A stretch of DNA of 13,585 nt, taken from the IMG/VR virus record IMGVR_UViG_2778261251_000022; one strand, written 5' to 3'. The number at the start of each line of letters is the position of its first letter. Within the stretch, counting starts at the first letter, position 1. Under the pieces are notes generated by a model that worked only from the letters and a program-made list of their open reading frames with translations, was not told the DNA's origin and made no database searches. This document shows positions 1 through 13,585 of the stretch, piece by piece. Origin of the DNA: a virus (lineage: Duplodnaviria > Heunggongvirae > Uroviricota > Caudoviricetes). Position numbers and translations under genes: made by a program.

Positions 1-291
1 TTATCTGGTGTGGTCGTAGTTCTGCCGTAGTCGTTCACCCTCAGCGCAATGACGCGGTTTTTTAACGCCGCTGGTAACGCAACGCGGGCAGGTCATGACG
101 TGGCTGATATACGCATCACGGGCAGCCAGCCACGTCGCTGACGGGGCGCACATATCCGCCAGCGCCTGGCCGTTGCTGGTGGTGTTGTCTTCCGGCCATG
201 TTTCGGGCTGGTGCGCTTCCGGTAAATCCGGTGCAGGTAATGCCCGGATAAACTCACACAATGCATCCGGCAGGCTGAATAACTTATGCAT
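1..291 (-). pseudogene. 96-aa ORF resembling an internal segment of the helicase at 991..2829; probable remnant or duplicated fragment
   Basis: Protein ...CEFIRAL...SNGQALADMC... parallels helicase ...PEFVRWL...SNGQTLADMY.... DNA 151..180 matches 1531..1560 at 29 of 30 nt, then diverges with an indel. TAA stop at 1..3 comes far earlier than in the helicase. Start at 291 (cat at 289..291 on plus). Confidence 0.35.
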
Positions 292-715
292 AAATCTGAT
301 GTTCTGAATCGCTGAAAACGTGCGTTTTATGGCGTTTTTTCGTGATTTCTGCGTGTTCTGATGTGCTCATTTCGCTGTATCCCTTGTGTGGCGCGGGCTG
401 CGCGTGTGTTTCGGTGTTCTTTTTTACCGCCAGAAAACGGTAATCAGGCATATAAACACGGCTGTAAGCCGCGCCGCGTCTGGCTTCGCGTGATTTTGTG
501 CGTCAAAAAGTGCATTTTTGCCCTTAAAAAGCGTTATTCGTAATTCACTGGTAAATGCTCCGCAGGCCGCGCCATTGCTGGCCTTTTCGCTATTCTGTGT
601 GGTTTTGCTGTTTAACCCGTTTTGCACACTAAAATTGCCTTGCATCCCGCGCCACGTAAGGGATTGCCGGGTTTTTATGTTGCGTTTTTTGCCGTGCGTA
701 ATATTGTGCAAGTTG

Positions 716-957
716 GTGGGACTGGTGGGAACTGTGGGAACCGCCTAGAACCACGCGGCTTTCAGTGGTTCCCACCAGTTCCCACGTTGGCTTTTTGTGG
801 GAACCGTGGCGGTTATTTTTTGTTCTTTGCGGTTCCCACCAGTTCCCGCAGAGTTCCCACTCAAAAACGAACAATAATCATACTGATGGTTTTATTATTT
901 ACTGATTTATATATGTTTTATTTTTACGGTTCCCACAGTTCCCACCAGTCCCACCAC
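716..957. repeat. Iteron cluster: about 12 copies of octamer GTTCCCAC/GTGGGAAC in both orientations around an AT-rich core (861..927); probable replication origin (P4 ori/crr-like)
   Basis: Copies read directly at 716-722, 725-732, 734-741, 797-804 (GTGGGAAC orientation) and 768-775, 778-785, 832-839, 842-849 (variant), 853-860, 929-936, 938-945, 948-954 (GTTCCCAC orientation). Lies immediately downstream of the helicase gene. Confidence 0.7.
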
Positions 958-990: not shown

Positions 991-2829
991 TTATTCATCA
1001 ATTGCGAATAACAATGCATTCTGGCCGATGGCGTAAACGCGGTGTTTCTCCCCGTTAACGGAAACGCGTTTTGTGTATCGGCGTTTCCCGTCCGTGTCGC
1101 GGTCAACAATCGCGCCAGCATCGTCAAGACTGGCCGCTATGCGTTTCAGGTCGTAGCCGCTGGCCGCCTCACATAGTGCTTCCGGTAAAAACCAGTAAAC
1201 CCGCTCGCCGTTGCTCCCCGGTCGCCACCATCCGGCGCGGGTGCTTACTGGTTCGCTGTATGTGCTGCCCCCTTCAAAGCGTGAAGCATGGCGGGCGATA
1301 AACCCCGCGACGGCCCGGAGTATTTTCACGTCCTCCGATTGCCCCCGCCCACGATAGTCCGCCCACGCATCAAACATCGCTTTCACTGCCTCCAGTGCTT
1401 CGCCCTGTTTCCACGGCAGAATCCCGGCAGTTATCGCCATTTCCCCGGCCAGTGCGCACAGTGTGAAACGCGCGGCGGCGCGTGCCTCCTGTCCGGTGCT
1501 TACGGGGAATTGTTCGCGCAGTATGGCGTACATATCCGCCAGCGTCTGGCCGTTGCTGTCGGTGCTGGTGGTGTCACTTTCATTGCGGGAAATCAGCCAG
1601 CGCACAAACTCCGGCCCGGCGTGGCCGTAATGGGTAGCCGCATTACCGCGCAGTGTTTCGGCAAATTTCCGGCCTGCTCCCCGGCGTTCTGTGTCGTTGT
1701 CGGGGTTGTGGGGTAGTGCCATTCCGTGAAGACAGTCAAATGCCCCGTAAAGCCGCTGTGCCGGAATATCCAGTAACCGCATTTCCTGCCCGGCCTTGAT
1801 GCGCTGGCCGCCGCTTTCCATGTGTTTACCCACGGTCATTTCCCCGGTGGAAATAATCATGGTGCGCCATGTGTTGACCGGGCGGGCCATGCCGGACACC
1901 TTGCCACGCTGACGGCCTGTTCCGTTGCCAAGCTGATAAATCAGCCCGCCAATATCTCTGGCCGGGGCTTCGCCAATTTCATCCAGTATCAGCGCGGTAT
2001 CGTTCCGCATGGTTGCCAGCCCTTCAAGCCCGGTGCTGGTGGCGTTCCAGTTGCGTTTAAAGTTGCGGGGTTCTCCCCATACGCTACAGGCCACCAGCGC
2101 CCCCACGCTTTTCCCGCTGGAACTGTCGCCCATGAAATGAAATCCGCCGCTGTCCACATCAAGCAACCACAGCAACGGCCCGGCGAGCGATGCACACACG
2201 GCCAGCATGGTTACCGGGTTTCCCCGGCATAATGCGGCCACGTTGTCGCGCCAGCCCTCCGGCGTTCCTGCGGTGGCGTACTCCTGTGAGCCTGCTTCTG
2301 TTGACTGAAACACCACATCACCATCACCGATAACCCCGCCCGGCATGACAAACAGGGCCGGGGAGTGCCACCCGGTGGCCGTGGCCGCGAGCGCCCGGCG
2401 TTTTGGTGCTGACTCCATGATGTATTCAGTCAGTGCCTGCCGTTGTTTGTAGGGAATGGTAACGCCCATGCGTAGCAGTTCCTGCCGGAGTTCTCCGCCG
2501 TCTCCGGCGAGCATTTCCATCGGTGCGGCCCATTCCCGCCACTGGCCTGACGGCGTGAGAAAACGGAGTAATCGCCCGTAGTTTTCGTCTTTGCTGTCGC
2601 TGGTCATGGCGATGACCTCCAGCGGGGAACATATAAACGTGTCTGTGTTGGTTGAGTCGCGCACGCCGTGCCAGTAAAGGCCGGGTTTCAGTATCTGGCC
2701 GCCGTCCACCTGTACATGCTGCGAATAAGTGGCGTAGCCCGGACGCGCCGGGCTGACTTTGGGGTGTTTCTTGCGTGGTGGTTTTCTCTTCCCGGATGTG
2801 ACCGGGGTTTTAGTGGTTGTCCGGGTCAT
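991..2829 (-). CDS. Replicative helicase / P-loop NTPase (P4 alpha C-terminal-like, D5/DUF927-type)
   Basis: 612-aa ORF. Walker A GDSSSGKS and Walker B ALILDEIGE visible in the translation. Sits directly downstream of the primase, overlapping its 3' end by 20 nt. ATG at 2829. Confidence 0.8.
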   Translation of the reverse strand: MTRTTTKTPVTSGKRKPPRKKHPKVSPARPGYATYSQHVQVDGGQILKPGLYWHGVRDSTNTDTFICSPLEVIAMTSDSKDENYGRLLRFLTPSGQWREWAAPMEMLAGDGGELRQELLRMGVTIPYKQRQALTEYIMESAPKRRALAATATGWHSPALFVMPGGVIGDGDVVFQSTEAGSQEYATAGTPEGWRDNVAALCRGNPVTMLAVCASLAGPLLWLLDVDSGGFHFMGDSSSGKSVGALVACSVWGEPRNFKRNWNATSTGLEGLATMRNDTALILDEIGEAPARDIGGLIYQLGNGTGRQRGKVSGMARPVNTWRTMIISTGEMTVGKHMESGGQRIKAGQEMRLLDIPAQRLYGAFDCLHGMALPHNPDNDTERRGAGRKFAETLRGNAATHYGHAGPEFVRWLISRNESDTTSTDSNGQTLADMYAILREQFPVSTGQEARAAARFTLCALAGEMAITAGILPWKQGEALEAVKAMFDAWADYRGRGQSEDVKILRAVAGFIARHASRFEGGSTYSEPVSTRAGWWRPGSNGERVYWFLPEALCEAASGYDLKRIAASLDDAGAIVDRDTDGKRRYTKRVSVNGEKHRVYAIGQNALLFAIDE

Positions 2830-3853
2830 GCTCCATTTCCCATAGCATCAAATCGTTAAAGTCGGAAAGGTCTGGTGATGCACCGGGCGGCCATTCCGGG
2901 AATGTGACGTAACACCCGGCCAGCAATGCGGCTTCGTTGGCTGCTCTGGAACCGGGGTTATCTTTTGATGCCCGGTCATCATCCCCGGCGATAACGAGAG
3001 ATATGCGCGAGCCGTATCGCTCACGCAGCGCCATAGCCACATGTTTAAGGTTTCCCGCATTCATGGCACACACCACGGCCATGACGTTCCAGTACTGGAG
3101 AAGGGCGGCCCCGGTGGCCCACCCCTCACACACGTAAACGTCATGTTCCGGCGCTTCCGGGGCCATCAGGTCAAAGCTCCCCATAACATGGAAAGCCCCC
3201 TGCACCTGACCATCACGGAGAAACATTTTTCGACCGTCCGGGCTGATAATCTGCACGTTCACCACTTCGCCGCATACGTTGTACAGCGGGACAAGCAAAT
3301 CATTACCTGACTGATACAGATTGCCGGGCTGTAGCCGTTTTTTCATGAGATAGGGATGAGAAGGGTTTGCCACCTCCGCCCGGCCAAGCAACTCAAAGGC
3401 CCGGCAGGCGGTCAGTTTCTGGCGCTGGTGGCGCTGTTGCTGTTCCCGCTGGCGGAGTCTGGCCGCCTCCTGTTCTGCGGCCTGTACCCGCACCCGTTGC
3501 GCCTCCCGTTGTTCGCGGGTCATTACATCAGGTTTGCCCAGCGCGGGCAGGCACAGCCCCAGCCTGTCCGCCACAATACGGGCGGCATCAGTCTGCCGCA
3601 CATTCCATAAATAAGCCCCCAGCGCCACAAGGTCGCCGCCGCTGTCCCCGGTGGCGAAGTCGTGCCAGCATCCGTCCACCAGCGAGACGGAAAAACTGCC
3701 CGCGTGACGGTCTGCACGCGTGGGGTTACGACACACCCATTCAGTGGCCTGCCGTTTACCTTCGGGCAGCCATTCGGGAACAAGGATTTCTGCATGTTGT
3801 GCCGCCACTGCGGCAACGCTACGGATTGCGTTAATCGTGGCTATGTCACGCAT
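2810..3853 (-). CDS. DNA primase, zinc-binding + Toprim domain (P4 alpha N-terminal-like)
   Basis: Cys/His cluster CRNPTRADRH...GCWHDF. Toprim motifs VYVCEGWATG (conserved Glu) and LVIAGDDDRASKDNPG. Start moved from the 4003 ORF start to ATG at 3853 (MRDIATINAIRS...), which has GGGAGGA upstream and abuts the TGA stop (3846..3848) of the preceding ORF. Confidence 0.85.
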   Translation of the reverse strand: MRDIATINAIRSVAAVAAQHAEILVPEWLPEGKRQATEWVCRNPTRADRHAGSFSVSLVDGCWHDFATGDSGGDLVALGAYLWNVRQTDAARIVADRLGLCLPALGKPDVMTREQREAQRVRVQAAEQEAARLRQREQQQRHQRQKLTACRAFELLGRAEVANPSHPYLMKKRLQPGNLYQSGNDLLVPLYNVCGEVVNVQIISPDGRKMFLRDGQVQGAFHVMGSFDLMAPEAPEHDVYVCEGWATGAALLQYWNVMAVVCAMNAGNLKHVAMALRERYGSRISLVIAGDDDRASKDNPGSRAANEAALLAGCYVTFPEWPPGASPDLSDFNDLMLWEMEHDPDNH

Positions 3854-4639: not shown

Positions 4640-5065
4640 TCTGGCAGCCTCCTTTTGCAAATTTAAGGAGTCACCGCCTGAGTTCCTACACTCATAAGGG
4701 GCGGTGACGCTGGCAGGGGTAGGAATACCGGCGCAAAAGGAAACCGGCCAGCCTTTCGGCTGCCCCACCAGCGCCACCATAGATACAGTGCGGGTCTTGC
4801 CGCTGTGCATGGGTGCGCGATGGCACGACACAAAAAAAGACGCTGGGCGCGTCTGTGTCGCCTTTTGCTCATTAAACGGGTTCCTACGCCCGGCTGGTGG
4901 ATTTACACCAGCGGGGGAAATATAACGCCCACCAGCGATGGCAGGCAAGCAATATTTGCGGTTGCCGCCCATCCCGTGGGGCGTGTGGTGGTTGTTTTGG
5001 GCGTGAGAACGCCCCGGCCCTGTTACGGGCCTTTCTGGCATTTTCATAATGATTATCGCGGTTGG
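4640..5065 (-). promoter_or_regulatory. Structured leader / promoter region between the alpA-like gene and the small-gene/primase operon (candidate immunity or regulatory RNA region)
   Basis: About 425 bp without a convincing ORF. Several stem-loops: GTCACCGCC(4672-4680)/GGCGGTGAC(4702-4710); GCTGGTG...CACCAGC near 4890-4915; GGGCGT-gaga-ACGCCC near 5002-5017. Plus the terminator at 4827..4859. Confidence 0.4.
4827..4859 (-). terminator. Intrinsic-terminator-like hairpin followed by a T7 run on the minus strand
   Basis: Minus strand reads AGACGC-GCCCA-GCGTCT then TTTTTTT (plus 4832..4854). Lies within the alpA to small-gene intergenic leader. Confidence 0.45.
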
Positions 5066-5320
5066 TTAGTGGCTGGTGGGTTCTTTGTTTTTTTGCGCTC
5101 TGGCGATAATTTCTGCCATTACGTTATTGCGTTCCTCCACGCGGGCCGCAAGCCATGCATTAACTTCGGATTCAAACCATCCAACGCGGCGCAGCCCGCG
5201 ACGAAAGCCGGGGATAAATTCGCCAGCCCGAATCATGTCGTCAATGCTGGTAGTGGAACGAAGGCGCAGACGCGCAGCAACCTCGCGTTTGGTGAGGATT
5301 TTATCTTGTGTGGTGTCCAT
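5066..5320 (-). CDS. alpA: AlpA/Vis-family small DNA-binding regulator (excisionase-like HTH)
   Basis: 84 aa from ATG 5320 with AAGAGG RBS. Sequence KREVAARLRLRSTTSIDDMIRAGEFIPGFRRGLRRVGWFESEVNAWLAAR fits the AlpA/prophage-regulatory-protein pattern. Position next to the integrase module is typical. Confidence 0.75.
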   Translation of the reverse strand: MDTTQDKILTKREVAARLRLRSTTSIDDMIRAGEFIPGFRRGLRRVGWFESEVNAWLAARVEERNNVMAEIIARAQKNKEPTSH

Positions 5321-5453
5321 GATATTTCGCCTCTTAATTGTATTAATTGGCCCTAACTGGCCATAACAATATGGAAGCACAAGAAGGCGTGAAATTGCCG
5401 GACATGTCCATCAGATGGCTGACATGTCCGGCGTATACTCATTCGTGAATTGA

Positions 5454-6332
5454 CTAATCAACCTTAAACCAGCGTCGCATGGTTTTTTGTGAGGGCAGAG
5501 ATAAACCAGCTTTGCAAAAATCGTTTTCTAATTCTGTTGGCTGGCCCTTGGTTTTGTCTTCTCTTACATGAAGCCATGGTTTGCCTCGCTTCGTTTCATC
5601 CTTGTAATACAGATAAAGCAAATCATCCACAAAAGCAGGCAGTGCGCTTCTTGGGTCTGGTTGTGTCGTCGGTGATGGTAGTTTTTTGGTTATGCACCCC
5701 ATTAACATCCCGTTAGCGCAATCTCTCCCGCCATCCTTAAGGATTTCGATTTCTTCGGCGGTAATAAACAGGTCATCAATGCTTACATCGAGTGGACTGG
5801 AATCAAAAGTAATCATCGGGCTGAGGGAATAATCGTCACCGTCAGTGTTCATTGTCCTTGGCTTTCCAAGAGAAAAACGAGCCGATGACTTTCCATATTT
5901 TACAAAATCATAAAAAGGCATGGATTTGGTCAGGTTGCATATGGACATTAACCCTTCTATGGTCAAGTACCTGTATCCCATTAAAGGTATTTGGTTTTTC
6001 GGAATACCTCTGGGACGTTCTTCACTGATAAACAGAATTGCTGTTGTGACTTCAAAATCTCCCGCGCTATATGGTGTATAGACGGTAAATGGTAGCTGAC
6101 ACAGTGAATCGCCAAGCGGTTTAAATAAAACATACTTATCAGTTGATTTAGTTTCATAATGGTTAAACAGGTCAATTTCAGCCCGCCACCTTCCTGATAT
6201 ATGTGTACAAATCTCCAGCATTCCTATGTCAGCAAAATGAAGCAAATCATCAACACTGCACTTATTGGAGTTTGCAGTCAGATAACTGGCCGCATCGCGT
6301 AGTGAGTAAAACAATCTTTTAGGTAATGCCAT
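5454..6332 (-). CDS. Hypothetical protein (292 aa), cargo gene between integrase and alpA
   Basis: ORF whose ATG (6332) lies 2 nt after the integrase TAA stop (6334..6336). Visibly more AT-rich than the flanking backbone. No motif recognised. Confidence 0.65.
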   Translation of the reverse strand: MALPKRLFYSLRDAASYLTANSNKCSVDDLLHFADIGMLEICTHISGRWRAEIDLFNHYETKSTDKYVLFKPLGDSLCQLPFTVYTPYSAGDFEVTTAILFISEERPRGIPKNQIPLMGYRYLTIEGLMSICNLTKSMPFYDFVKYGKSSARFSLGKPRTMNTDGDDYSLSPMITFDSSPLDVSIDDLFITAEEIEILKDGGRDCANGMLMGCITKKLPSPTTQPDPRSALPAFVDDLLYLYYKDETKRGKPWLHVREDKTKGQPTELENDFCKAGLSLPSQKTMRRWFKVD

Positions 6333-6333
6333 A

Positions 6334-7608
6334 TTATTCACCAACCACTTTTAAGCCACGAAAACCGCCAGTTGCACTAAGGCTTCCGGTTGCTGCCTGT
6401 TCGATAAAATCACCCCACCACGCCATCAGTGGGCGGCGTTGCTCCAGATATGTGGAGCGATTGTAAGCCCGTCTCACCGTGTCCTTATCCAGATGGGAAA
6501 GCGCAGCCTCTATTACATCTGGCGGGAACCCCTGTTCATTAAGCGCCGTACTTGCTACAGAGCGTAAACCATGCGCCACCAGCTTTCCGGTATACCCCAT
6601 GCGCCTGATAGCGGCGTTTGCGGTCTGTTGATGCATCCCACGCATGGGGTCGCTGTTATGTGGAAAAACAAACTTTCGATGCCCGCTGATTGGGCGCATG
6701 GCTTCAAGAATGGCCATTGCCTGATTATTCAGGGGGACAATGTGCTCCCTTCGTTGTTTTAGTCGCCCGGCTGATATACGCCACACTCTGGCATCTGCAT
6801 CTATCTCGCTCCACTGTGCCCCGGCTGCCTCGCATGGGCGGCAAATAGTTAATAATTGCCATTCAATAACAAGACGCGTTTGAAGTTCTGCGCGAGCCGT
6901 TGCCAGTTTTTGCATAAATTCCGGCAACTCATCAGGCCTGATTGTTGGCATGTGTTTAACTACAGGTGGGTTGAATGCCTTGCTGATTTGAGCGGCGGGA
7001 TTAGCTGGAATTAATCCAATATTCACTGCGTAATACATAACCTCATTGATTCTTTGTGCCAGCCGTCGCACCGTATCCGCTTTGCCCTGTGCTGATACAG
7101 GTTTCAGGGCTTCGATAAAATCCCGTGCAACCAGTTCTGTGATTGGGCGATGGCCTATGGGTGGCAGCACATGACGCTCAAGAGAACGCCATATATCACG
7201 GAGTGTATTTGCCGCCAGATTCTGGCCGCGCTTTACTTCAAACCATTCTTCGGCCACGCGCTGAAATGTGTTTAATCGCCGTATTTCATCATCCCGGCGT
7301 TGTTTTTCCCTGTGTTCTTTGGGGTCAGTTCCATTTGCGACCAGTGAGCGATACTCGTCTTTAATCCTGCGAGCATCGGCAATGCTGATTTCGGGATATG
7401 CACCAAGGCTTAACATTGCCCGTTTTTTGGTGTGTGGCTTGTAGTACCGGAACCGCCATAAGGCTGATGCGCTACCCGCTTTCACAACTAACTCCAGCCC
7501 ATCGCCATCCGTGATAAATAAATCCTTCTCGGCGGTGAGCGATTTCTTCTGCAAACTTTTAATCGTCGCTGGTGTAAGTAATTTTGTGTTTTTGGCCACT
7601 GGTTGCAT
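6334..7608 (-). CDS. int: Tyrosine site-specific integrase (P4-type, with N-terminal arm-binding domain)
   Basis: 424 aa. N-terminal WRFRYY motif. C-terminal catalytic signature AHGLRSV...LSHLDKDTVRRAYNRSTY (R, H-x-x-R, H, Y). 5' end faces the tRNA fragment. Confidence 0.9.
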   Translation of the reverse strand: MQPVAKNTKLLTPATIKSLQKKSLTAEKDLFITDGDGLELVVKAGSASALWRFRYYKPHTKKRAMLSLGAYPEISIADARRIKDEYRSLVANGTDPKEHREKQRRDDEIRRLNTFQRVAEEWFEVKRGQNLAANTLRDIWRSLERHVLPPIGHRPITELVARDFIEALKPVSAQGKADTVRRLAQRINEVMYYAVNIGLIPANPAAQISKAFNPPVVKHMPTIRPDELPEFMQKLATARAELQTRLVIEWQLLTICRPCEAAGAQWSEIDADARVWRISAGRLKQRREHIVPLNNQAMAILEAMRPISGHRKFVFPHNSDPMRGMHQQTANAAIRRMGYTGKLVAHGLRSVASTALNEQGFPPDVIEAALSHLDKDTVRRAYNRSTYLEQRRPLMAWWGDFIEQAATGSLSATGGFRGLKVVGE

Positions 7609-7719
7609 CCCGAAACAGGTTTAAGGCATACGAGATTGCTTCTGTTTGTGAGGATATGCCTTGATGTATGCCTAAAGAATCTGGCTTATACCTTAGCAAA
7701 CTGGCCAAAACTGGACAAT

Positions 7720-7755
7720 AAAAAACCCGCAAGCCTTGTGTGGCGCGGGTTTCGT
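7720..7755 (-). terminator. Intrinsic-terminator-like hairpin with T6 run on the minus strand, downstream of the tRNA fragment
   Basis: Minus strand: CCCGCGCC-acacaa-GGCTTGCGGG followed by TTTTTT. Located about 45 nt 3' of the tRNA CCA end. Confidence 0.5.
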
Positions 7756-7796
7756 CTGATTAACTGGCCGTATCTGATACTAACCGAATGTCAATT

Positions 7797-7843
7797 TGGT
7801 GGCCCCTGCTGGACTTGAACCAGCGACCAAGCGATTATGAGTC
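7797..7843 (-). tRNA. Partial tRNA: 3' 47 nt only (anticodon loop CUCAUAA with anticodon CAU, variable loop, T-arm, acceptor 3' strand, CCA); probable att core/direct repeat, not a functional gene
   Basis: Minus strand reads ACTCATAATCGCTTGGTCGCTGGTTCAAGTCCAGCAGGGGCCACCA: T-stem GCTGG/CCAGC with loop TTCAAGT, acceptor GGGGCC plus ACCA. The 5' half (acceptor 5' strand, D-arm, 5' anticodon stem) is absent, as upstream is ...gcctcatg. From memory it matches the 3' part of enterobacterial tRNA-Ile2 (ileX/ileY type); this is unverified. Confidence 0.8.
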
Positions 7844-8039: not shown

Positions 8040-9356
8040 ATGGCCGTCAATCTTACTGAAACAGCCATCCGAGCATTGAAAGCAAAAAAGACATCGTTCT
8101 ATGTCTGGAGCAACAGCTCTCAACGTGGCACTGGACGACTTGGTGTCAAAGTTCAGTCTTCTGGCAGCAAGATTTTCTATTTCCGCTATTACGTGGAAAA
8201 AGGGAAAAAAGAAAGATTCATTCAATTGGGTATATGGCCTGAGATGAAACTGGCCACAGCGAATGAACTGGCAAAAAAGTATGGTGCCTGGCTCATTGAA
8301 GGAAAGGATCCCCAGGCAGAACTGGAACGACAACAGTTTGCAGAACAGCAGCGGATACAACTCCATCAATCACAGGGCTCATTTGAAGCATTGATTCATG
8401 GTTATGTTAACAAAATGAAAATTGATAATAAGAGGACATGGCAGGATGTTCTGAAACGCCTTGAAAATGAATGCTATACAGTGATCCCCCGTGAAACTAA
8501 AGCTAAAGATGTGACTTCCGGACAGATTAAACATATCCTGGCCGGGATCATTCAGCGTGGTGCTGTGGTTCACTCTAACCGGATCCGTTCTTACCTGATG
8601 GCTGCATTTAACTATGGACTGAAAGCAGATAACGATCCGATGAACACAAGTGCAGGGATTACTTTTGGGCTGGAGGCAAATCCGGTGTCAGTGATACCGA
8701 AACAGTCATCTGCTGAAAAAGTCGGTGATACCTGGCTGACACTTGAAGAGTTGCGTTTTCTAATGGAACATTTTGCTGAAGCAACCAACGTTGGATTATT
8801 GATGCAACATTTGATCCGATTCTGTATCTATACCGGAGGGCAACGTCCCTTCGAAATGATCGCCAGTCAGTGGTGTGATGTTGATTTTCAACAAAAAACG
8901 CTGCTGGTGACTGCTGATGTCTCTAAAAATAAACGAGAGCATTTGATACCGTTGACTGAATCAGCATTACAGGAATTATCCTGTGTGCAGGAGTTAACAA
9001 AAGAAAAATCCAGCCCTTACATTTTTCCACTTTCGACTAATGGTAAGCGTCCGGTTCGTACGGACAGTCTGGCTCGCGCTATCATGTATTTCCGGGCTTT
9101 TAATCCTGACTTTAAAATTTTTACAGCACGTGACTTACGTCGGACCTGTAAAACGTTAATGGGAGAAGCTGGGATCAGTAAGGAAATCCGCGATCGTATT
9201 CAAAATCATGCGTTGAACGATGTCAGTTCAAAACATTATGATCGATACGATTATTTGCCAGAAAAACGCAGAGCACTTGAGATCTGGGAGGACCGGGTTA
9301 ATAACTATCAACAGCAAACAGGCAATAATGTTGTCAATCTGTTTGGCAGAAGGTGA
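8040..9356 (+). CDS. int: Tyrosine site-specific integrase (second, distinct from the one at 6334..7608)
   Basis: 438 aa. AAGAGG RBS 5 nt upstream of ATG. N-terminal FYFRYY arm-binding-type motif. C-terminal RDLRRT...IQNHALNDVSSKHYDRYDY (R, H, Y catalytic residues). Confidence 0.88.
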   Translation: MAVNLTETAIRALKAKKTSFYVWSNSSQRGTGRLGVKVQSSGSKIFYFRYYVEKGKKERFIQLGIWPEMKLATANELAKKYGAWLIEGKDPQAELERQQFAEQQRIQLHQSQGSFEALIHGYVNKMKIDNKRTWQDVLKRLENECYTVIPRETKAKDVTSGQIKHILAGIIQRGAVVHSNRIRSYLMAAFNYGLKADNDPMNTSAGITFGLEANPVSVIPKQSSAEKVGDTWLTLEELRFLMEHFAEATNVGLLMQHLIRFCIYTGGQRPFEMIASQWCDVDFQQKTLLVTADVSKNKREHLIPLTESALQELSCVQELTKEKSSPYIFPLSTNGKRPVRTDSLARAIMYFRAFNPDFKIFTARDLRRTCKTLMGEAGISKEIRDRIQNHALNDVSSKHYDRYDYLPEKRRALEIWEDRVNNYQQQTGNNVVNLFGRR

Positions 9357-9455: not shown

Positions 9456-10082
9456 GTGCCGGTATTACTCAGAGGGGATTCAAAAATGGCTGTAATTCCA
9501 ATGTCTTACTCCCCTGCTACTGTAGCTCGTCGTTTTTCGATACTGGATGGAGTAACTATTCAGGGCGTGCTTTACCAGATCATCTGGGATCCAAAGACTC
9601 CGTTTGCTGCGGTAATCGAAGCTGCACCTTCTGTTATTGATGGTGATGTTCGCCATAAGGTTGTTGCCACTCTGGAGCTTCAGCGTCGTCCCCGGCTTGA
9701 AGGCGTGTTTGTCCAGAAATTCTGGGAAGAACAGGATGTTGCTCAGATTGAAGGGATTGTTGTCGATGGCGCTGTACGTGATGTTGGTCTTGCAACGTTT
9801 GTTTATGAAACGATAGTCACAAAAGCGGGCGTTGTACTATTAAGTGATAACGAGCAATATGAAGGAGGTAAAGCTCTCTGGCAGCATATTGCGCGTCGTT
9901 CAACGAATCTGAAGGTGTTTATTTTAGATACTGATTCCGCACGGTATTACCCGTTTGATGGCGAACGGATCAGTTATGACGGGAAAAGCATCCCGGAATC
10001 AGAAATCTGGAGTGAACATCCTGAGCGAAACAGACACGCTGTCGTTCTTGTGGCTGAATCTGTTAATGGTAAAGCCGCATAA
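9456..10082 (+). CDS. Hypothetical protein (about 198-208 aa)
   Basis: ORF downstream of integrase 2. Two candidate starts: GTG 9456 (GAGGT 8 nt upstream) or ATG 9486 (GAGGGG 7 nt upstream). Followed by a hairpin terminator. No confident motif. Confidence 0.6.
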   Translation: MPVLLRGDSKMAVIPMSYSPATVARRFSILDGVTIQGVLYQIIWDPKTPFAAVIEAAPSVIDGDVRHKVVATLELQRRPRLEGVFVQKFWEEQDVAQIEGIVVDGAVRDVGLATFVYETIVTKAGVVLLSDNEQYEGGKALWQHIARRSTNLKVFILDTDSARYYPFDGERISYDGKSIPESEIWSEHPERNRHAVVLVAESVNGKAA

Positions 10083-10164: not shown

Positions 10165-11769
10165 TTACTGTTCGACCAGACATTTTCCCCATAAAGGTCG
10201 TATCGAGTATCTATCTTCGCTATATGGATTTATTTTATTTTTTTCCCTCTGTGCTATCAGCAACGTGTCGATCTCATCCTTAATAATGTGTTGAACTGTT
10301 TGACGGTAACGGTTAAGCGAAGTGTCACTGATATCTTGTGGAAGTTGTAGACTGCCATCTGCCTTGACGAGTTCATTCACACCATCTTTAATTTTGCGTC
10401 CCTGACCATCAGGTATACCTTCATTCAGATCATAGCCTTTCAGTCCTGCAAGACGAATATTCACGTCAATCTTTTCTGTACGTTTCTTTTTGTTACTTAC
10501 CAACAGAATTTTATTGGCGTTATACCATTTTTCAAATGTTTCCAGTTGTTTCATGATGTTTGTGAAGTTATTCAGTTCGCTCCTGAATTCAATAGATTTT
10601 CTAATTTCACGCTCTTTTGCATCAATGTTTGTTCCTGGATAATTTATTTCCCTTTTTAACGGTTCTATGTATGCCTGTTGCAGGCAACCAGCAAGATTCA
10701 TTGCTGCATCCTGCAGGGTATTGGTATAAATCAGTTTCAGAAGTTCATCGCGCTGTATAGTGATTTGACAATAGTCTTTTTCCCATGCGGTGGTGTTTTC
10801 AATCGTGTCACTTTCATCGGAAATAATTGTTGTGAATTTCCAGGTGTAACGAATAAAATCATTTCCTTTAAAATATTGCACTAATTTATTTAACCATTCA
10901 TATATTTCCAGAGCATAAAGTTTAACGTATCCATCATATATTATCTTTGTTGCATTTTTGTTGGCTAGCGAAAACATTTTGTCCACGAATTCTGTACGCC
11001 CGATTGTTAGCAATTGTTTTCTAAGTTTACTCACATCGTTAGTATCTGGTTTCTCACAATTCCAGGGACTTTTGTATTCATTTTCAAAAGGAGAAAGCCA
11101 TTCAGGAATCTCTGTTTCTGAGTGATAGCAGTTGTTAATAGCCAAACCAAGGGTTCTGGCAAGTATCGCTGATTCATCAATTTGATGGTATCGGTTCAGT
11201 TGTTCCAGTAATTCTTTAGTACATGAGTGCGCAACAGAAAGATCCTGATGGCAATATCCTTGTCGAACCAGAGCGGGAAGTGGTGAGCAATGAGCTTTGC
11301 AATCTGTCAGAATATTGAACAAATCGTTTCTGACGAATTCTTCCATCTCAGGTGTTTTCCAGCCACCACTATTTTGGCCGACAAATTTTGCTGTTGGTTC
11401 CCTGTTCATATCTCCCCAGGTTTTCAGGCTGACGAGTCTGTTATCAAAACCATTGTATAAATGGCACATAACCTGAAAAGCAGCATACAGCTCTTTAGAT
11501 AGTGGATTATCGGTCTCACCTATGGAGTAGTCCTCTCTATTTTGCTCTAAAATATTTTGTAGTTTTGTGTTAGCGCGTAATGCCGAGAGAATCCGATGTT
11601 GTTCATCAAACCAGGGACGATATTCTGGATCCAGATACAATCTGCGTGCTTTGAAAATGAGTAGAAGCAACTGTTCGGAAACAGCTTCATGTATGTGGGG
11701 AAACGGCATGGAGGTGCCAGATAAAACACGATAGTACGGGTGGTTTGTTTTTACCTTTTTAGTTACCAT
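10165..11769 (-). CDS. Hypothetical protein (534 aa), AT-rich cargo gene of unknown function
   Basis: Long uninterrupted ORF in AT-rich DNA, which is statistically unlikely by chance. TAA stop at 10165..10167. Transcribed divergently from the AT-rich intergenic region it shares with the alpA-like gene. No canonical catalytic motif recognised. Confidence 0.75.
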   Translation of the reverse strand: MVTKKVKTNHPYYRVLSGTSMPFPHIHEAVSEQLLLLIFKARRLYLDPEYRPWFDEQHRILSALRANTKLQNILEQNREDYSIGETDNPLSKELYAAFQVMCHLYNGFDNRLVSLKTWGDMNREPTAKFVGQNSGGWKTPEMEEFVRNDLFNILTDCKAHCSPLPALVRQGYCHQDLSVAHSCTKELLEQLNRYHQIDESAILARTLGLAINNCYHSETEIPEWLSPFENEYKSPWNCEKPDTNDVSKLRKQLLTIGRTEFVDKMFSLANKNATKIIYDGYVKLYALEIYEWLNKLVQYFKGNDFIRYTWKFTTIISDESDTIENTTAWEKDYCQITIQRDELLKLIYTNTLQDAAMNLAGCLQQAYIEPLKREINYPGTNIDAKEREIRKSIEFRSELNNFTNIMKQLETFEKWYNANKILLVSNKKKRTEKIDVNIRLAGLKGYDLNEGIPDGQGRKIKDGVNELVKADGSLQLPQDISDTSLNRYRQTVQHIIKDEIDTLLIAQREKNKINPYSEDRYSIRPLWGKCLVEQ

Positions 11770-12548
11770 AATGTTAAATTCTTCCGTCTATTGCATAGCT
11801 GTTTCCAGTAGAGAAACTTGATACAGTCCTTTGTCAGGACATTGATACAGAGTTAACAGCCTCTACGAAATGGGAATCAGTTATGCAGTGGCATTATACG
11901 ATGCTGAATCTAATACGATATCCTTAGCGTTTATTCCTGATTTTTTTACGAGCATTCCCTTTTGTTGCATATTGCTCAGGACGTAAATGATTTTACGGTT
12001 ATAGCCCTCTACAGTCACGTCACTTTCATCTGAAAATATGTATCGTTTTCATTCAATTATTATCTTTTGTCTGCACTTTAGCTTTAGCAAGTTGGCAAAA
12101 ATCAACTCCCTCTTACAAGTTCTATTATCGCCAGAAGATAATTTTGTGAACTTCGTCACGTTTTCAAACTAATGTTGTGGGGGCTTTTCTGGGGAAAATT
12201 TTTGGTCACTACCCCTCCTCTTGATATCATAGATCATAACAAGATTTTTTTTGTTTTTGTCTGCATAAAATAACCTGCAAAGATTATGATTTTGGTTTTT
12301 ATTTTGTATATTAAAAAGTATTGTTTGAATTATTTTTATATTGTGACTTTCTTTGTTGTTATTGTGTTATTAGAAGTCAGTTAATTAAATCAATTCTCGC
12401 AATTTGATTTCTTGGTTGTGCAAATGTATTGTTTTGCTCGTGAGTTGCTGGTGCTGTTCAACAGCATACCACTACAGATAGATGTAGTGATTTGAGCAGC
12501 TCACATGCATATACAATCTGAAAATCATGAATGTATAAGGAGAGCAAT
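11770..12548. promoter_or_regulatory. Long AT-rich divergent intergenic region (probable divergent promoters for the 534-aa gene and the alpA-like gene)
   Basis: About 780 bp with no ORF of 60 aa or more. Very AT-rich with A/T tracts, typical of horizontally acquired promoter regions. Confidence 0.4.
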
Positions 12549-12776
12549 ATGTGGAAGCCGTTAAGAGATGAGAACCGTTTATCAATTTTGAAGATCTATG
12601 GATACACCTGTGACAGACTGGTACGAGAAGAGGAACGTCAGAACATTACGTCTATTTCTCGTTCACAAGCCTGGAAACTGGAACGTGAAGGAAAATTCCC
12701 GCCACGTAAAACTATTGGAAAGAAATCCTGTGGGTGGTTATTAAGTGATCTATTGTGGTGGATTAGTCAGTATTAA
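12549..12776 (+). CDS. AlpA-family-like small DNA-binding regulator (75 aa)
   Basis: ATG at 12549 preceded by AAGGAG (7-nt spacer); the upstream in-frame ATG at 12531 lacks an RBS. ...ITSISRSQAWKLEREGKFPPRKTIGKKSCGWLLSDLLWWI fits the AlpA-like HTH pattern. Confidence 0.6.
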   Translation: MWKPLRDENRLSILKIYGYTCDRLVREEERQNITSISRSQAWKLEREGKFPPRKTIGKKSCGWLLSDLLWWISQY

Positions 12777-12838: not shown

Positions 12839-13585
12839 ATGATGAAACGTGTCTCTTTCTCTCTTGCAGAAACATATGAAGCTGATGTAATTAAAAAGTA
12901 TCAGCATTTAAAAAAATGTTCATTTTCAGCAGCGATTAAAGAGTGTTTAAAGCTAGGGGCTCCTGTTTTAAACAGGATAAATGAAAATATTGCTGCTATA
13001 ACTGATATAGAGGATAAGCTACGTCAGTTTTTTAATGAGGAACCATTTGTGCAACGGACAAAGCCTGAAATAACAAAAGGAGAGTTTTTTCATAGCATTT
13101 ATAAATCGCATATCAAATATGAATATGATGTTCTCGATAGAAAGATATTTCCTCATGAAAGCACCAGAAATGCTATGGGAGTTGCAGAGAAAAAGGGAAT
13201 TAAAGAGAATGCGATCTTAATGCTGGAATATTATAAAGTTGAGAAGGCAATTTGTATTTACACGAACAGAAAAGTTTCCCATGCCCTGAATCGTGCAGGA
13301 GGGTTTTATAAAACCATTCTGATTAAAACCAGTGTTTTTGGGGATTATTTTTTTGACTTTTGCAATTCAGTTTGCCTGCCGATAGATGAATTGATTGAGT
13401 ATGGTACGAAAGAAACAGTGAGGCGACATCAGATTCGTAGTACAGGATTTTGTACTTTTCATATTCCGATTTTTTATATCAATAATAAGGCTGTAATAGT
13501 GCCTGTTCTGAGAACAGAGGAAGTTTCACAAAGTTCCAGAACAGGTGGAGATGTTATTATTATTAACCCATTTGAAGATGAATGA
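12839..13585 (+). CDS. Hypothetical protein (248 aa) with possible N-terminal ribbon-helix-helix fold
   Basis: Strong AAAAGGAG RBS. N-terminus KRVSFSLAETYEADVIKKYQHL...SFSAAIKECLKLG has a beta-strand/helix/helix pattern reminiscent of CopG/RHH. Stop codon is the last 3 nt of the window. Confidence 0.65.
   Translation: MMKRVSFSLAETYEADVIKKYQHLKKCSFSAAIKECLKLGAPVLNRINENIAAITDIEDKLRQFFNEEPFVQRTKPEITKGEFFHSIYKSHIKYEYDVLDRKIFPHESTRNAMGVAEKKGIKENAILMLEYYKVEKAICIYTNRKVSHALNRAGGFYKTILIKTSVFGDYFFDFCNSVCLPIDELIEYGTKETVRRHQIRSTGFCTFHIPIFYINNKAVIVPVLRTEEVSQSSRTGGDVIIINPFEDE

Follow-up and report, generated by a model that had tools for sequence, protein, structure and literature searches.

A divergent gene family upstream of alpA in P4-like satellites: a candidate regulator of satellite activation

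The window analysed here, meaning the whole stretch of 13,585 nucleotides of a virus of the Caudoviricetes (IMG/VR record IMGVR_UViG_2778261251_000022), contains in its left part a satellite island of about 8 kb, extending from nfeF to tRNA-Ile (Table 1; loci compared with it are given L numbers). The island carries the parts of a P4-like satellite, i.e., a P4-type integrase (int), a Vis/AlpA gene, the C4 RNA and a primase; sid, delta and psu were neither annotated nor detected in it, and are present in the true P4-like locus L016. C4 and isrK, the immunity RNAs of the P4 type, are found downstream of alpA. The replication module (991..3853) is composed of the Toprim and DUF927 genes, and the iteron-like repeats next to it are probably the origin of replication. 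Both Pfam matches of the alpA product are weak and fall under the curated cut-offs; in RefSeq this gene is annotated as a helix-turn-helix transcriptional regulator. The island is bounded by an att remnant, which is also the junction with a right-hand island. ARAGORN found no complete tRNA in the window, and in L001 a complete tRNA-Ile is annotated at the position matching the remnant.

Table 1. Features of the left island (window coordinates) and modules of the X protein (residues).
Feature	Position	Strand	Basis or remarks
Four iteron-like copies of GGTTCCCACCAGTTCCC	717..953		Downstream of DUF927 gene; 4 matches vs 0.04 expected
DUF927 helicase-like gene	991-2829	minus	Pfam, RefSeq annotation
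Toprim primase-like gene	2810-3853	minus	Pfam, RefSeq annotation
C4 antisense RNA	4697-4784	minus	Rfam 79.6 bits, above gathering score; inside Ash/Icd-like ORF
isrK RNA	4833-4912	minus	Rfam 60.7 bits, above gathering score; inside Ash/Icd-like ORF
alpA/vis-like small HTH regulator, 84 aa	5066..5320	minus	Pfam HTH_17 6.6e-4, Phage_AlpA 1.7e-3
Tandem direct repeats GGCCAGTT / GGCCAATT	5345..5369		Sequences as read on minus strand; just upstream of alpA ribosome-binding site
O2, operator-like palindrome near alpA	5399..5410		Perfect core GGACATGTCC; 20 bp start-to-start from O1
O1, operator-like palindrome near X stop	5420..5431		CGGACATGTCAG as read on minus strand; core matches GGACATGTCC at 9/10 bases
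Target gene X, 292 aa	5454..6332	minus	ORF from ATG
P4-type tyrosine integrase	6334..7608	minus	Pfam Arm-DNA-bind_3, Phage_int_M, Phage_integrase
3' 47 nt of tRNA-Ile2, att remnant	7797..7843	minus	Comparison with L001
X: N-terminal Xis/MerR-like winged helix	residues ~1-54		Strand, two helices, wing; predicted fold
X: hypervariable beta-rich centre	residues ~46-180		Fold conserved across family (predicted)
X: conserved motif DLFITAEEIEILKDGGR	residues ~187-203		
X: disordered linker	residues ~207-222		
X: C-terminal 4-helix HTH-like domain	residues ~226-292		Predicted

Gene X separates the integrase gene from alpA. The original prediction had described it as a gene of low GC content and without a recognisable motif, placed between the integrase and the AlpA/Vis-like gene, and each of these points was confirmed. 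All three genes lie on the minus strand, and the start of X is found 2 nt past the last base of the int stop codon (TAA at 6336-6334, a lone spacer base at 6333, and the ATG at 6332). The GC content of X is 0.419, in comparison to 0.506 for int, 0.533 for alpA and 0.589 for ash. Pfam, PHROGs, PADLOC and NCBIfam gave no match to X at E<=0.1, and nothing in the protein was recognised as an enzymatic or effector domain. A TTG codon located 4 codons upstream would give a protein of 296 aa; however, the ATG is supported, since all homologues begin with M-x-L-P. Judging by the length kept across about 35 homologous clusters and by a dN/dS of 0.27 in comparison to the L007 homologue, X is a real gene. 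With a spacer of just one nucleotide between them, int and X are likely to share a transcript and to be coupled in translation.

The protein family of X is undescribed, rare and highly divergent. Its extent became visible only in an exhaustive HMMER search, which returned about 35 clusters at 50% identity from Enterobacterales, Orbales and Pasteurellaceae; word-indexed protein searches badly under-reported the family (3, then 9 hits), and a contig search with an integrase alignment gave only 3 related loci. All but two of the 35 clusters consist of proteins of 250-340 aa, in which N-terminal, middle and C-terminal blocks are conserved. The family was absent from the phage collection, the plasmid collection and the viral contigs searched, and no named Vibrionaceae member was present among the 20 family clusters looked up. 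None of 36 family members had a Pfam match at E<=0.05, and, like X, they were without hits in PHROGs, PADLOC and NCBIfam.

The position of X is conserved with respect to alpA. In all 14 contexts with readable downstream DNA, the next gene after X is a small one of the AlpA/HTH_17 type in the same orientation, and these contexts span four integrase clades and replication modules as different as Toprim+DUF927, RepA, a D5-type primase and pRha+Mob_Pre. X usually comes directly after int, and the co-oriented order int-X-alpA was found in the window and in 11 further loci. Among 11 loci compared for the int-X spacing, six have a value between -1 and +6 nt: the single-nucleotide spacer of the window recurs in L007, L017 and L019, the genes overlap by 1 nt in L024, and the gap amounts to 4-6 nt in L003 and L029; in four other loci it is 89-185 nt. 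One of the 14 contexts has no adjacent P4-type integrase, and in L027, L025 and L009 linkage is retained to alpA and not to int. The X family is a recurrent part of the integration/regulation zone of AlpA-type (P4/PICI-like) satellites.

The original prediction had gone further and proposed an exchangeable cargo position, pointing to a mirror-image arrangement with different cargo in the right-hand element. That arrangement is indeed present: an integrase gene (8040..9356, plus strand) is followed by a 208-aa ORF (plus), a 534-aa ORF (minus) and an HTH/AlpA gene (12531..12776, plus), and both ORFs are unrelated to X. Exchange at the X locus was seen as well. In the islands sharing the window's backbone the proteins encoded by int, alpA, ash, toprim and the DUF927 gene are 68-85% identical to those of the window, whereas X is only 37%, 29% and 23% identical in three of them, so that the gene between int and alpA is variable as anticipated. 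DNA homology between islands ends inside or beside X, as at recombination breakpoints, and in L007 the dS of X is 0.38, far below the 0.99-1.5 of the flanking genes; the history of X is therefore decoupled from that of the backbone. However, the occupants all come from a single family and share one predicted fold topology. A family member is present in all six islands with an integrase at least 63% identical to that of the window, and the same-backbone islands L007, L017, L019, L003, L024 and L029 each have one in the slot. By comparison of the sequences, the exchanged units are alleles or domains of one family and not unrelated genes. The family is nevertheless patchy, since islands with an integrase 52-57% identical lack it, and in more distant P4-integrase islands the int-alpA interval holds nothing, a 76-aa gene, or P4 cargo together with psu-delta-sid. 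The 76-aa gene, which occupies the same slot in tRNA-Pro PICIs, was considered as a relative of X and proved unrelated.

These data can be read in terms of arms-race cargo, i.e., X would serve anti-phage defence, interference or superinfection exclusion directed at proteins of helper or competitor phages, the slot would resemble the P4 int-psu hotspot, and the palindromes described below would be unrelated to X (a terminator, or sites of another factor). Hotspots in P4-like satellites are reportedly documented (PMC9122126), and the exchange of alleles inside conserved backbones, the patchy distribution, the hypervariable centre of the protein (omega 0.51) and a GC content which in every element lies 5-19 points under int and 4-11 points under alpA would all fit. 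Yet hotspots hold non-homologous systems, and here all occupants belong to one family with one fold, kept in constant orientation and adjacency to alpA. The absence of PADLOC matches and of effector or enzymatic domains, the predicted DNA-binding modules, and the lack of the gene in the phage, plasmid and viral contig data speak against it too, and we regard this reading as very doubtful. What stands of the original claim is a variable locus decoupled from its backbone; the predicted DNA-binding domain with cognate-looking operators, and the absence of a defence-system signature, do not agree with exchangeable cargo. The other outcome which had been envisaged was a conserved component with a role in integration or regulation, and this agrees with the conservation and synteny observed, while the function itself we infer.

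The X protein is modular and consists of four modules (Table 1). Remote-homology searching and structure prediction, which had been suggested for this gene, gave divergent homologues with a common predicted fold topology and an N-terminal winged helix. The residues of this N-terminal domain are near-invariant among homologues, and its predicted fold matches the excisionases Pukovnik Xis and RdfS. Purifying selection acts most strongly on the C-terminal domain (omega 0.03), whereas the centre is under relaxed selection. Searches with the C-terminal domains alone gave nothing in Pfam, PHROGs, PADLOC or NCBIfam; no match was found in a PDB sequence-profile search with the C-terminal profile, no known HTH family was recognised by sequence, and no fold match was obtained for this domain. 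The sole sequence-profile hit for X in the PDB, to YopX, was weak (E 0.042), covered the variable region and was treated as a chance match. A paralogous relation between the N-terminal domain and the AlpA of the island was considered too and was rejected by hhalign, in which the X N-terminus aligned to 14 AlpA-like proteins with a probability below 1%.

The winged helix places X beside proteins of the excisionase/MerR type (Pukovnik Xis, RdfS, TorI, AlpA/Vis; families HTH_17 and Phage_AlpA), with which residues ~1-54 share the predicted fold; excisionases, likewise, occur in integrative elements. However, no sequence-profile match connects them to X, which is 3-5 times longer and has three extra modules, and excisionases use direct repeats in the att arms, whereas the X-linked sites are palindromes far from att. 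MerR regulators continue after the winged helix with a long antiparallel coiled-coil helix for dimerisation and with an effector domain, a plan that X does not match, as beta strands and no long helix come after its winged helix; moreover, MerR regulators bind one palindrome within a 19-20 bp promoter spacer, and X is associated with two palindromes upstream of a putative promoter.

By position, the closest precedent for X is the PICMI gene iolg/icg. It is a function-unassigned gene lying co-oriented between int and alpA, it overlaps or abuts the int stop codon, and it comprises many very divergent families (13 IOLG/ICG families; PMC10803314). In PICMI115 iolg is essential for helper-induced excision, and it has been proposed to be expressed constitutively with int and to take part in an Int-IOLG-AlpA excision complex (PMC10803314). 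The two differ in their hosts, Vibrionaceae in comparison to Enterobacterales, Orbales and Pasteurellaceae for X, and for IOLG neither a DNA-binding domain nor a set of operator sites has been described. Following this precedent, X could be an excision accessory factor, RDF-like and equivalent to IOLG, which acts directly in the Int/AlpA excisive complex and whose N-terminal winged helix bends att-arm DNA or contacts Int. The match of the predicted N-terminal fold to Pukovnik Xis and RdfS, the near-invariant N-terminal residues, which suggest a conserved partner, and the coupling of the X start to the int stop in most loci are all in favour of it. On the other hand, the repeated sites linked to X are confined to a place about 2.4 kb from att, with no copy near it; X has 292 aa and three further modules, unlike recombination directionality factors of 55-100 aa; the linkage to alpA and not to int in L027, L025 and L009 does not fit; and the element already has a candidate excisionase of the AlpA/Vis type. 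We therefore consider this role unlikely. An excision-factor role and a regulatory role of X can coexist.

Two operator-like palindromes, O1 and O2, separate X from alpA. Their motif has only two copies in the whole window, none of them near att, and both lie upstream of the putative alpA promoter. The same architecture recurs in the family as two palindromes of 10-14 bp, 20-21 bp apart, which begin at the X stop codon or within about 25 bp past it. In a strict test (two similar 10-bp palindromes, 20-21 bp apart, no more than 75 bp past the stop codon) 9 of 12 loci were positive, and L029 was added later. Altogether 10 of the 15 family loci keep the tandem architecture, which occurs in three sequence types and as exactly one pair per island; the ~180 kb of the 15 loci contain just 7 further pairs, most of them AT-rich. 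The five loci without a clean pair (L004, L009, L010, L027 and L028) have other inverted repeats instead. L014, a PICI without X, has two 20-nt repeats with an imperfect palindrome upstream of its HTH gene.

The operator type follows the C-terminal domain of X. Three types were distinguished: GGACATGTCC, GTAATATTAC (type B) and GGAATATTCC (type C). Identity of the C-terminal domains is 49% within a type and 29% between types (permutation p = 0.0015), and the operator type tracked neither the X N-terminus (p = 0.96) nor the centre, the middle motif or int. An earlier rule, in which the operator type was set by the length of an N-terminal turn, fitted 9 loci and was broken by L029; the C-terminal correlation took its place. 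AlpA was ruled out as the protein binding the palindromes because AlpA type and operator type are decoupled: L029 shares 81-83% AlpA identity with L017 and L019, yet the operators differ, and the AlpAs of L021 and L023 are only 26% identical with the same operators. The Ogr/Delta element is TGT-N12-ACA; by inspection, sites of this kind were rejected too, since the spacing is N14-15 in type A and types B and C are without the motif.

The tandem direct repeats just upstream of alpA are conserved together with AlpA type in L007, L017, L019, L029 and L003. Their 8-mer recurs between int and att, at 7699-7713 and 7762-7776, and the motif has 5 matches in comparison to 0.54 expected. These repeats are candidate AlpA/Vis or Int sites.

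Since the C-terminal coding region abuts the operators, linkage could by itself yield covariation through co-inheritance, the more so as the correlation covers only 9 non-independent loci. In a further reading, a regulator of the helper phage or of the host would bind the palindromes, or these would merely shield alpA, as an RNA hairpin or terminator, from read-through out of int-X; X would have some other role, and the covariation would reflect physical linkage. O1 and O2 do fold together as a stable 12-bp RNA hairpin (dG -25 kcal/mol, z -2.9), which could act alone; the first palindrome belongs to a canonical stem and T-run terminator in L003 and L027; and the C-terminal coding region adjoins the operators, so both would recombine as a unit. 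However, the arms are palindromes in their own right, and are so in three versions of unrelated sequence; a hairpin of RNA would have no need of this. An intrinsic terminator in the window was rejected, as the stem is not followed by a U-tract and the site was not called in the terminator scan. Furthermore, in L019 the C-terminal DNA has diverged past blastn detection, yet the type-A protein signature and type-A operators are retained. We find this explanation quite unlikely.

It seems, instead, that X is a site-specific regulator which gates the alpA promoter, a proposal to which we would give an even chance. Adjacency to alpA, together with palindromes that change along with the C-terminal domain, makes X most likely a regulator of satellite activation. 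As the genes are adjacent and co-oriented, with coupled start and stop codons, X would be produced together with the integrase. It would bind the two palindromes, two helical turns apart, as a dimer of dimers, making contact through the C-terminal HTH-like domain. These sites would directly precede the promoter region of alpA/vis, which corresponds to PLL, the late promoter of P4 that responds to the helper. The invariant Xis-like winged helix would touch a conserved partner, be it DNA, Int or AlpA, and the hypervariable centre would be an input or specificity module which may read a cue from the helper phage or the host. By gating AlpA expression, X would control excision and activation of the island. 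Sequence cannot tell whether X would act as a repressor or an activator.

Two known switches resemble this arrangement in part. The P4 left operon (PLL - vis - PLE - CI/C4 RNA) shares with the island the P4-type integrase, the Vis/AlpA-like gene, C4 with isrK, and the primase, and X with its palindromes takes the place of the helper-responsive late promoter region of P4 and of sid-delta-psu and the cargo hotspot, which in P4 lie further upstream; the difference is that the island is devoid of sid, delta and psu, and the occupants of its slot are homologous rather than diverse systems. Stl of the SaPIs combines, as X is predicted to, a DNA-binding module with a highly divergent one and is located next to int, beside the activation switch, and its allele diversity, as that of X, could define helper specificity. 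The modular plan and the hypervariable centre of X would be compatible with a master repressor of this kind. However, Stl has an HTH of the XRE type and is transcribed divergently from the genes it represses, whereas X is co-directional with alpA, and the two are unrelated in sequence and fold.

The gating role could be extended to a more general model, which we put forward as speculative and rather unlikely in its entirety: X would be the input device of AlpA-type Gram-negative satellites, made constitutively with the integrase and seated on two alpA-promoter operators, until its centre recognises a helper-phage product and alpA is turned on. Swaps of the centre would re-target the satellite to other helpers, and in Vibrionaceae the same part would be played by the PICMI IOLG. 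C-terminal domains and operators would co-evolve as private orthogonal pairs, and so, as we propose, co-resident satellites would be free of cross-talk.

How a helper phage switches alpA on was posed as an open question in the PICMI study (PMC10803314). With alpA as the master activator of Gram-negative PICIs, PICMIs and P4-like elements, X is a concrete candidate for this step. What we offer is a family without library annotation, with a defined domain plan, three protein-operator specificity types and a distinct evolutionary signature, namely a protein that is invariant at the N-terminus, is hypervariable in the centre, and at the C-terminus varies with the operators. Were X only an excision cofactor, it would still be the Enterobacterales counterpart of IOLG; if the model is true, satellite biology would gain a further level of regulation, along with a supply of orthogonal pairs of DNA-binding proteins and operators.

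X lies where the original prediction placed it, between the integrase and the AlpA-like gene of the left-hand P4-like island, and starts 2 nt past the integrase stop (one spacer base separates the int TAA from the X ATG). Its lower GC content was also confirmed (X 0.419, int 0.506, alpA 0.533; 0.589 in ash, the Ash/Icd-like ORF), and the reported lack of a recognisable motif agrees with our searches, in which X had no match in Pfam, PHROGs, PADLOC or NCBIfam. The right-hand island has the expected order as well, from its integrase through two ORFs to an HTH/AlpA gene; its ORF region is of very low GC (0.31-0.42).

Features of the window in and around the two islands
Feature	Position	Strand	Remark
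X	5454..6332	-	292 aa counted from ATG
P4-type tyrosine integrase	6334..7608	-	directly 5' of X
AlpA-like/HTH_17 gene	5066..5320	-	84 aa; 133 bp after X
GGCCAGTT tandem repeat	5345-5369	-	just upstream of alpA ribosome-binding site
GGCCAGTT copies	7699-7713, 7762-7776	-	between int and att
C4 antisense RNA	4697-4784	-	Rfam 79.6 bits; within Ash/Icd-like ORF
isrK	4833-4912	-	Rfam 60.7 bits; within Ash/Icd-like ORF
tRNA-Ile2, 3' 47 nt only	7797-7843	-	second island begins here
Right-hand integrase	8040..9356	+	followed by 208-aa ORF, 534-aa ORF, HTH/AlpA gene
Right-hand 208-aa protein	9456-10082	+	sole match phrog_7522, unknown function, E 2e-129
Right-hand 534-aa ORF	10165-11769	-	opposite strand to its integrase
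Right-hand HTH/AlpA gene	12531..12776		after 208-aa and 534-aa ORFs
Right-hand 248-aa ORF	12839-13585	+	no match in any library
17-mer GGTTCCCACCAGTTCCC, four copies	717-953		one inverted; in 700-bp non-coding stretch after DUF927 gene
43-nt similar stretches	145-187, 1525-1567		96-aa ORF at left edge; DUF927 gene
21-nt repeat (CCTTGTGTGGCGCGGG...)	382-402, 7734-7754		GC-rich, hairpin-forming; one per left-island end

Of 5426 complete E. coli genomes searched at the nucleotide level, 18 contain the left part of the window; most of these 18 are porcine ETEC. In them it forms an island of ~8 kb flanked by nfeF and a tRNA-Ile gene adjoining mug-rpoD, in the order int, X, HTH, Ash/Icd-like, two small ORFs, Toprim, DUF927 and a 96-aa ORF. 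It adjoins an intact tRNA-Ile in most carriers, the right-hand island is found by itself in many further E. coli genomes, and the two-island arrangement of the window is common to two genomes. ARAGORN reported no tRNA in the window because only the tRNA-Ile2 remnant is left; as this separates two integrase genes oriented away from each other, we regard it as an att remnant common to both islands. The Rfam matches to C4 and isrK show that the left island has P4-type RNA immunity. It also has a Vis/AlpA gene and a primase, and no sid, delta or psu was found in it. It matches the zones for integration, Bro/immunity and replication that have been described in Gram-negative PICIs, although no late zone is evident (PMC10111431). 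The 17-mers after the DUF927 gene are probably iterons of a replication origin, and, as the 43-nt likeness (88-93% identity in the E. coli copies) suggests, the DUF927 C-terminal region may have been partly duplicated.

Only three close clusters were retrieved by a word-indexed protein search, whereas an exhaustive HMMER search yielded a family of 35 clusters at 50% identity, each with 1-10 members and all but two of 250-340 aa. Named members, all annotated as hypothetical, come from Escherichia, Salmonella, Providencia, Serratia, Enterobacter, Pluralibacter, Entomohabitans, Gilliamella and Lonepinella. No member matched Pfam, nothing was found in phage, plasmid and viral-contig collections, and a literature search found no paper mentioning the RefSeq accession of X. 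In the family alignment an almost invariant N-terminal block (M-x-L-P-x-R-x-x-Y...A...D-L-x-H) is followed by a very variable centre of 135 residues, a short motif in the middle (DLFIT-EE-E-L-NGGR) and a C-terminal block of moderate conservation whose end reads P-x-G-K-T-x-x-x-W.

The constant partner of X is alpA rather than int. We compared 15 distinct genomic contexts. One of them (L010-L012) lies on contigs that end too soon for a downstream gene call; in all 14 contexts with readable downstream DNA, the gene directly after X is a small AlpA/HTH_17-type gene in the same orientation. These contexts otherwise differ and include Toprim+DUF927 (L001, L007, L017, L019, L024, L023), RepA helicase (L003), D5-type primase (L021, L025, L027) and pRha plus Mob_Pre (L008/L009, L004) backbones. 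X usually abuts int (-1 to +6 nt apart in seven loci, 89-185 nt in four), but two small genes intervene in L025, L027 has a ParE toxin pair upstream and no P4-type integrase nearby, and in L009 a 358-aa ATPase_2/AAA_14-like gene lies in between (L009 1659-2735, L010 754-1830). This ATPase-like gene, found in one sub-branch of the family, may represent true cargo inserted into that interval. X was present in 6/6 islands whose integrase is at least 63% identical to that of the window and absent from three with integrases 52-57% identical: a tRNA-Pro island with the HTH gene directly after int, a tRNA-Pro PICI (L014) with an unrelated 76-aa gene in the interval, and a true P4-like element carrying cargo and psu-delta-sid. 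Upstream of the HTH gene, L014 has two 20-nt direct repeats containing an imperfect palindrome (7096-7135); further small regulator/operator pairs may occupy the int-alpA interval.

Among islands of the same backbone X diverges far more than its neighbours. Identity to the window is 37% (L017), 29% (L019) and 23% (L003) for X, versus 74-82% for int and 71-75% for AlpA; for L017 and L019 only, as L003 has a different replication module, it is 68-76% for Ash, 81% for Toprim and 80-85% for DUF927. DNA homology stops 10 nt into X and resumes at codon ~236 in L017, stops at codon ~41 and resumes just past the X stop in L019, and stops at the int end and resumes at the alpA start in L003. Conversely, in L007 X is as similar to the window as the backbone (81%), with a dS of 0.38, well below the 0.99-1.5 of flanking genes (int is saturated). 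Given these breaks and the low dS, X has its own history, with alleles or domains of one family swapped by recombination in conserved flanks. Domain by domain, comparing the window with L007 gives a dN/dS of 0.15 (N-terminus), 0.51 (centre), 0.24 (middle) and 0.03 (C-terminus). The GC content of X is below that of int by 5-19 points and of alpA by 4-11 in every element, even in low-GC Gilliamella, so low GC is a trait of the family. Thus, the proposal of an exchangeable cargo slot holds in part: the slot is a variation hotspot, but its occupants are homologous and tied to alpA rather than unrelated, and X behaves differently from P4 hotspot cargo. That this variability reflects arms-race cargo is, of the alternatives considered here, the one we find least probable.

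The 133-bp X-alpA spacer of the window holds CGGACATGTCAG and TGGACATGTCCG, 20 bp apart; the motif occurs nowhere else in the 13.6 kb. In 10/15 loci two palindromes of 10-14 bp, 20-21 bp start-to-start, begin at the X stop codon or within ~25 bp after it; under a strict definition, only 7 other pairs, most of them AT-rich, occur in the ~180 kb of the 15 loci. Three operator types were distinguished, with cores GGACATGTCC (type A; window, L007, L017, L019, L024), GTAATATTAC (type B; L003, L025, L029) and GGAATATTCC (type C; L021, L022/L023). The two arms in the window form a stable stem with no U-tract, and the first site of L003 and L027 also serves as a terminator; a plain RNA hairpin is nevertheless an insufficient explanation, as palindromic symmetry is present within each single arm in all three types.

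Operator type is tracked by the C-terminal domain of X (49% identity within types versus 29% between, label-permutation p = 0.0015). The N-terminus showed no tracking (41% within versus 45% between, p = 0.96), nor did the centre and middle motif in a domain-by-domain identity matrix. The last helix reads (Q/R)K(T/S)x(R/K/M)RW in type A, mostly GVTVxKW in type B and GKT(V/I)x(R/K)W in type C. The covariation sample is nine related loci in which the C-terminal codons adjoin the operators, so that linkage alone could yield the pattern; however, L019 retains type-A signature and operators with C-terminal DNA beyond blastn detection, which argues against pure linkage. An operator type set by N-terminal turn length failed on L029. 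AlpA showed no tracking either: L029 has type-B operators even though its AlpA shares 81-83% identity with the L017 and L019 proteins and is nearly identical to them in the HTH region, and the two type-C AlpAs share only 26% identity. It is rather unlikely, in our judgement, that the palindromes belong to something other than X. As candidate AlpA/Vis or Int (arm-type) binding sites, the GGCCAGTT repeats (8-mer AACTGGCC; five copies in the window versus 0.54 expected), conserved along with AlpA type, would serve better than the palindromes.

In the AF2 model of X (42-sequence alignment; pLDDT 80.7, pTM 0.66), residues 1-54 form a strand, two helices and a long beta hairpin. Next come a beta-rich middle that includes a single helix, a strand-strand-helix unit in which the conserved motif lies (181-199) and a linker predicted to be disordered (207-222), and the chain ends in four C-terminal helices (231-289). 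The model of the Salmonella member P0013 (pLDDT 86.8) has the same element order at ~19% identity in the centre, so the centre is predicted to be one fold with hypervariable sequence.

By position, the closest precedent is the class of PICMI iolg/icg genes, which are located between int and alpA, in many cases overlapping int, and form 13 divergent families of unknown function; iolg is essential for PICMI115 excision (PMC10803314). X shares this placement, the likeness drawn here being one of position, and no follow-up work on iolg was found in the literature. X could likewise act directly as an excision cofactor, which is compatible with a regulatory role; it has the predicted fold of excisionases, without their sequence, size or site arrangement, and we consider direct action improbable, if less so than the other alternatives. 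The resemblance to SaPI Stl is in logic only. We give roughly even chances to X being a regulator of transcription into alpA through the two predicted operators. X would probably be made together with the integrase, and its C-terminal HTH-like domain would bind both operators and control transcription entering alpA, in a region that matches in position the P4 helper-responsive promoter region upstream of vis. The invariant Xis-like N-terminal domain would address a conserved partner, and the variable centre would be an input or specificity module. We class X as a satellite regulatory or excision accessory protein, of a family that no library describes.
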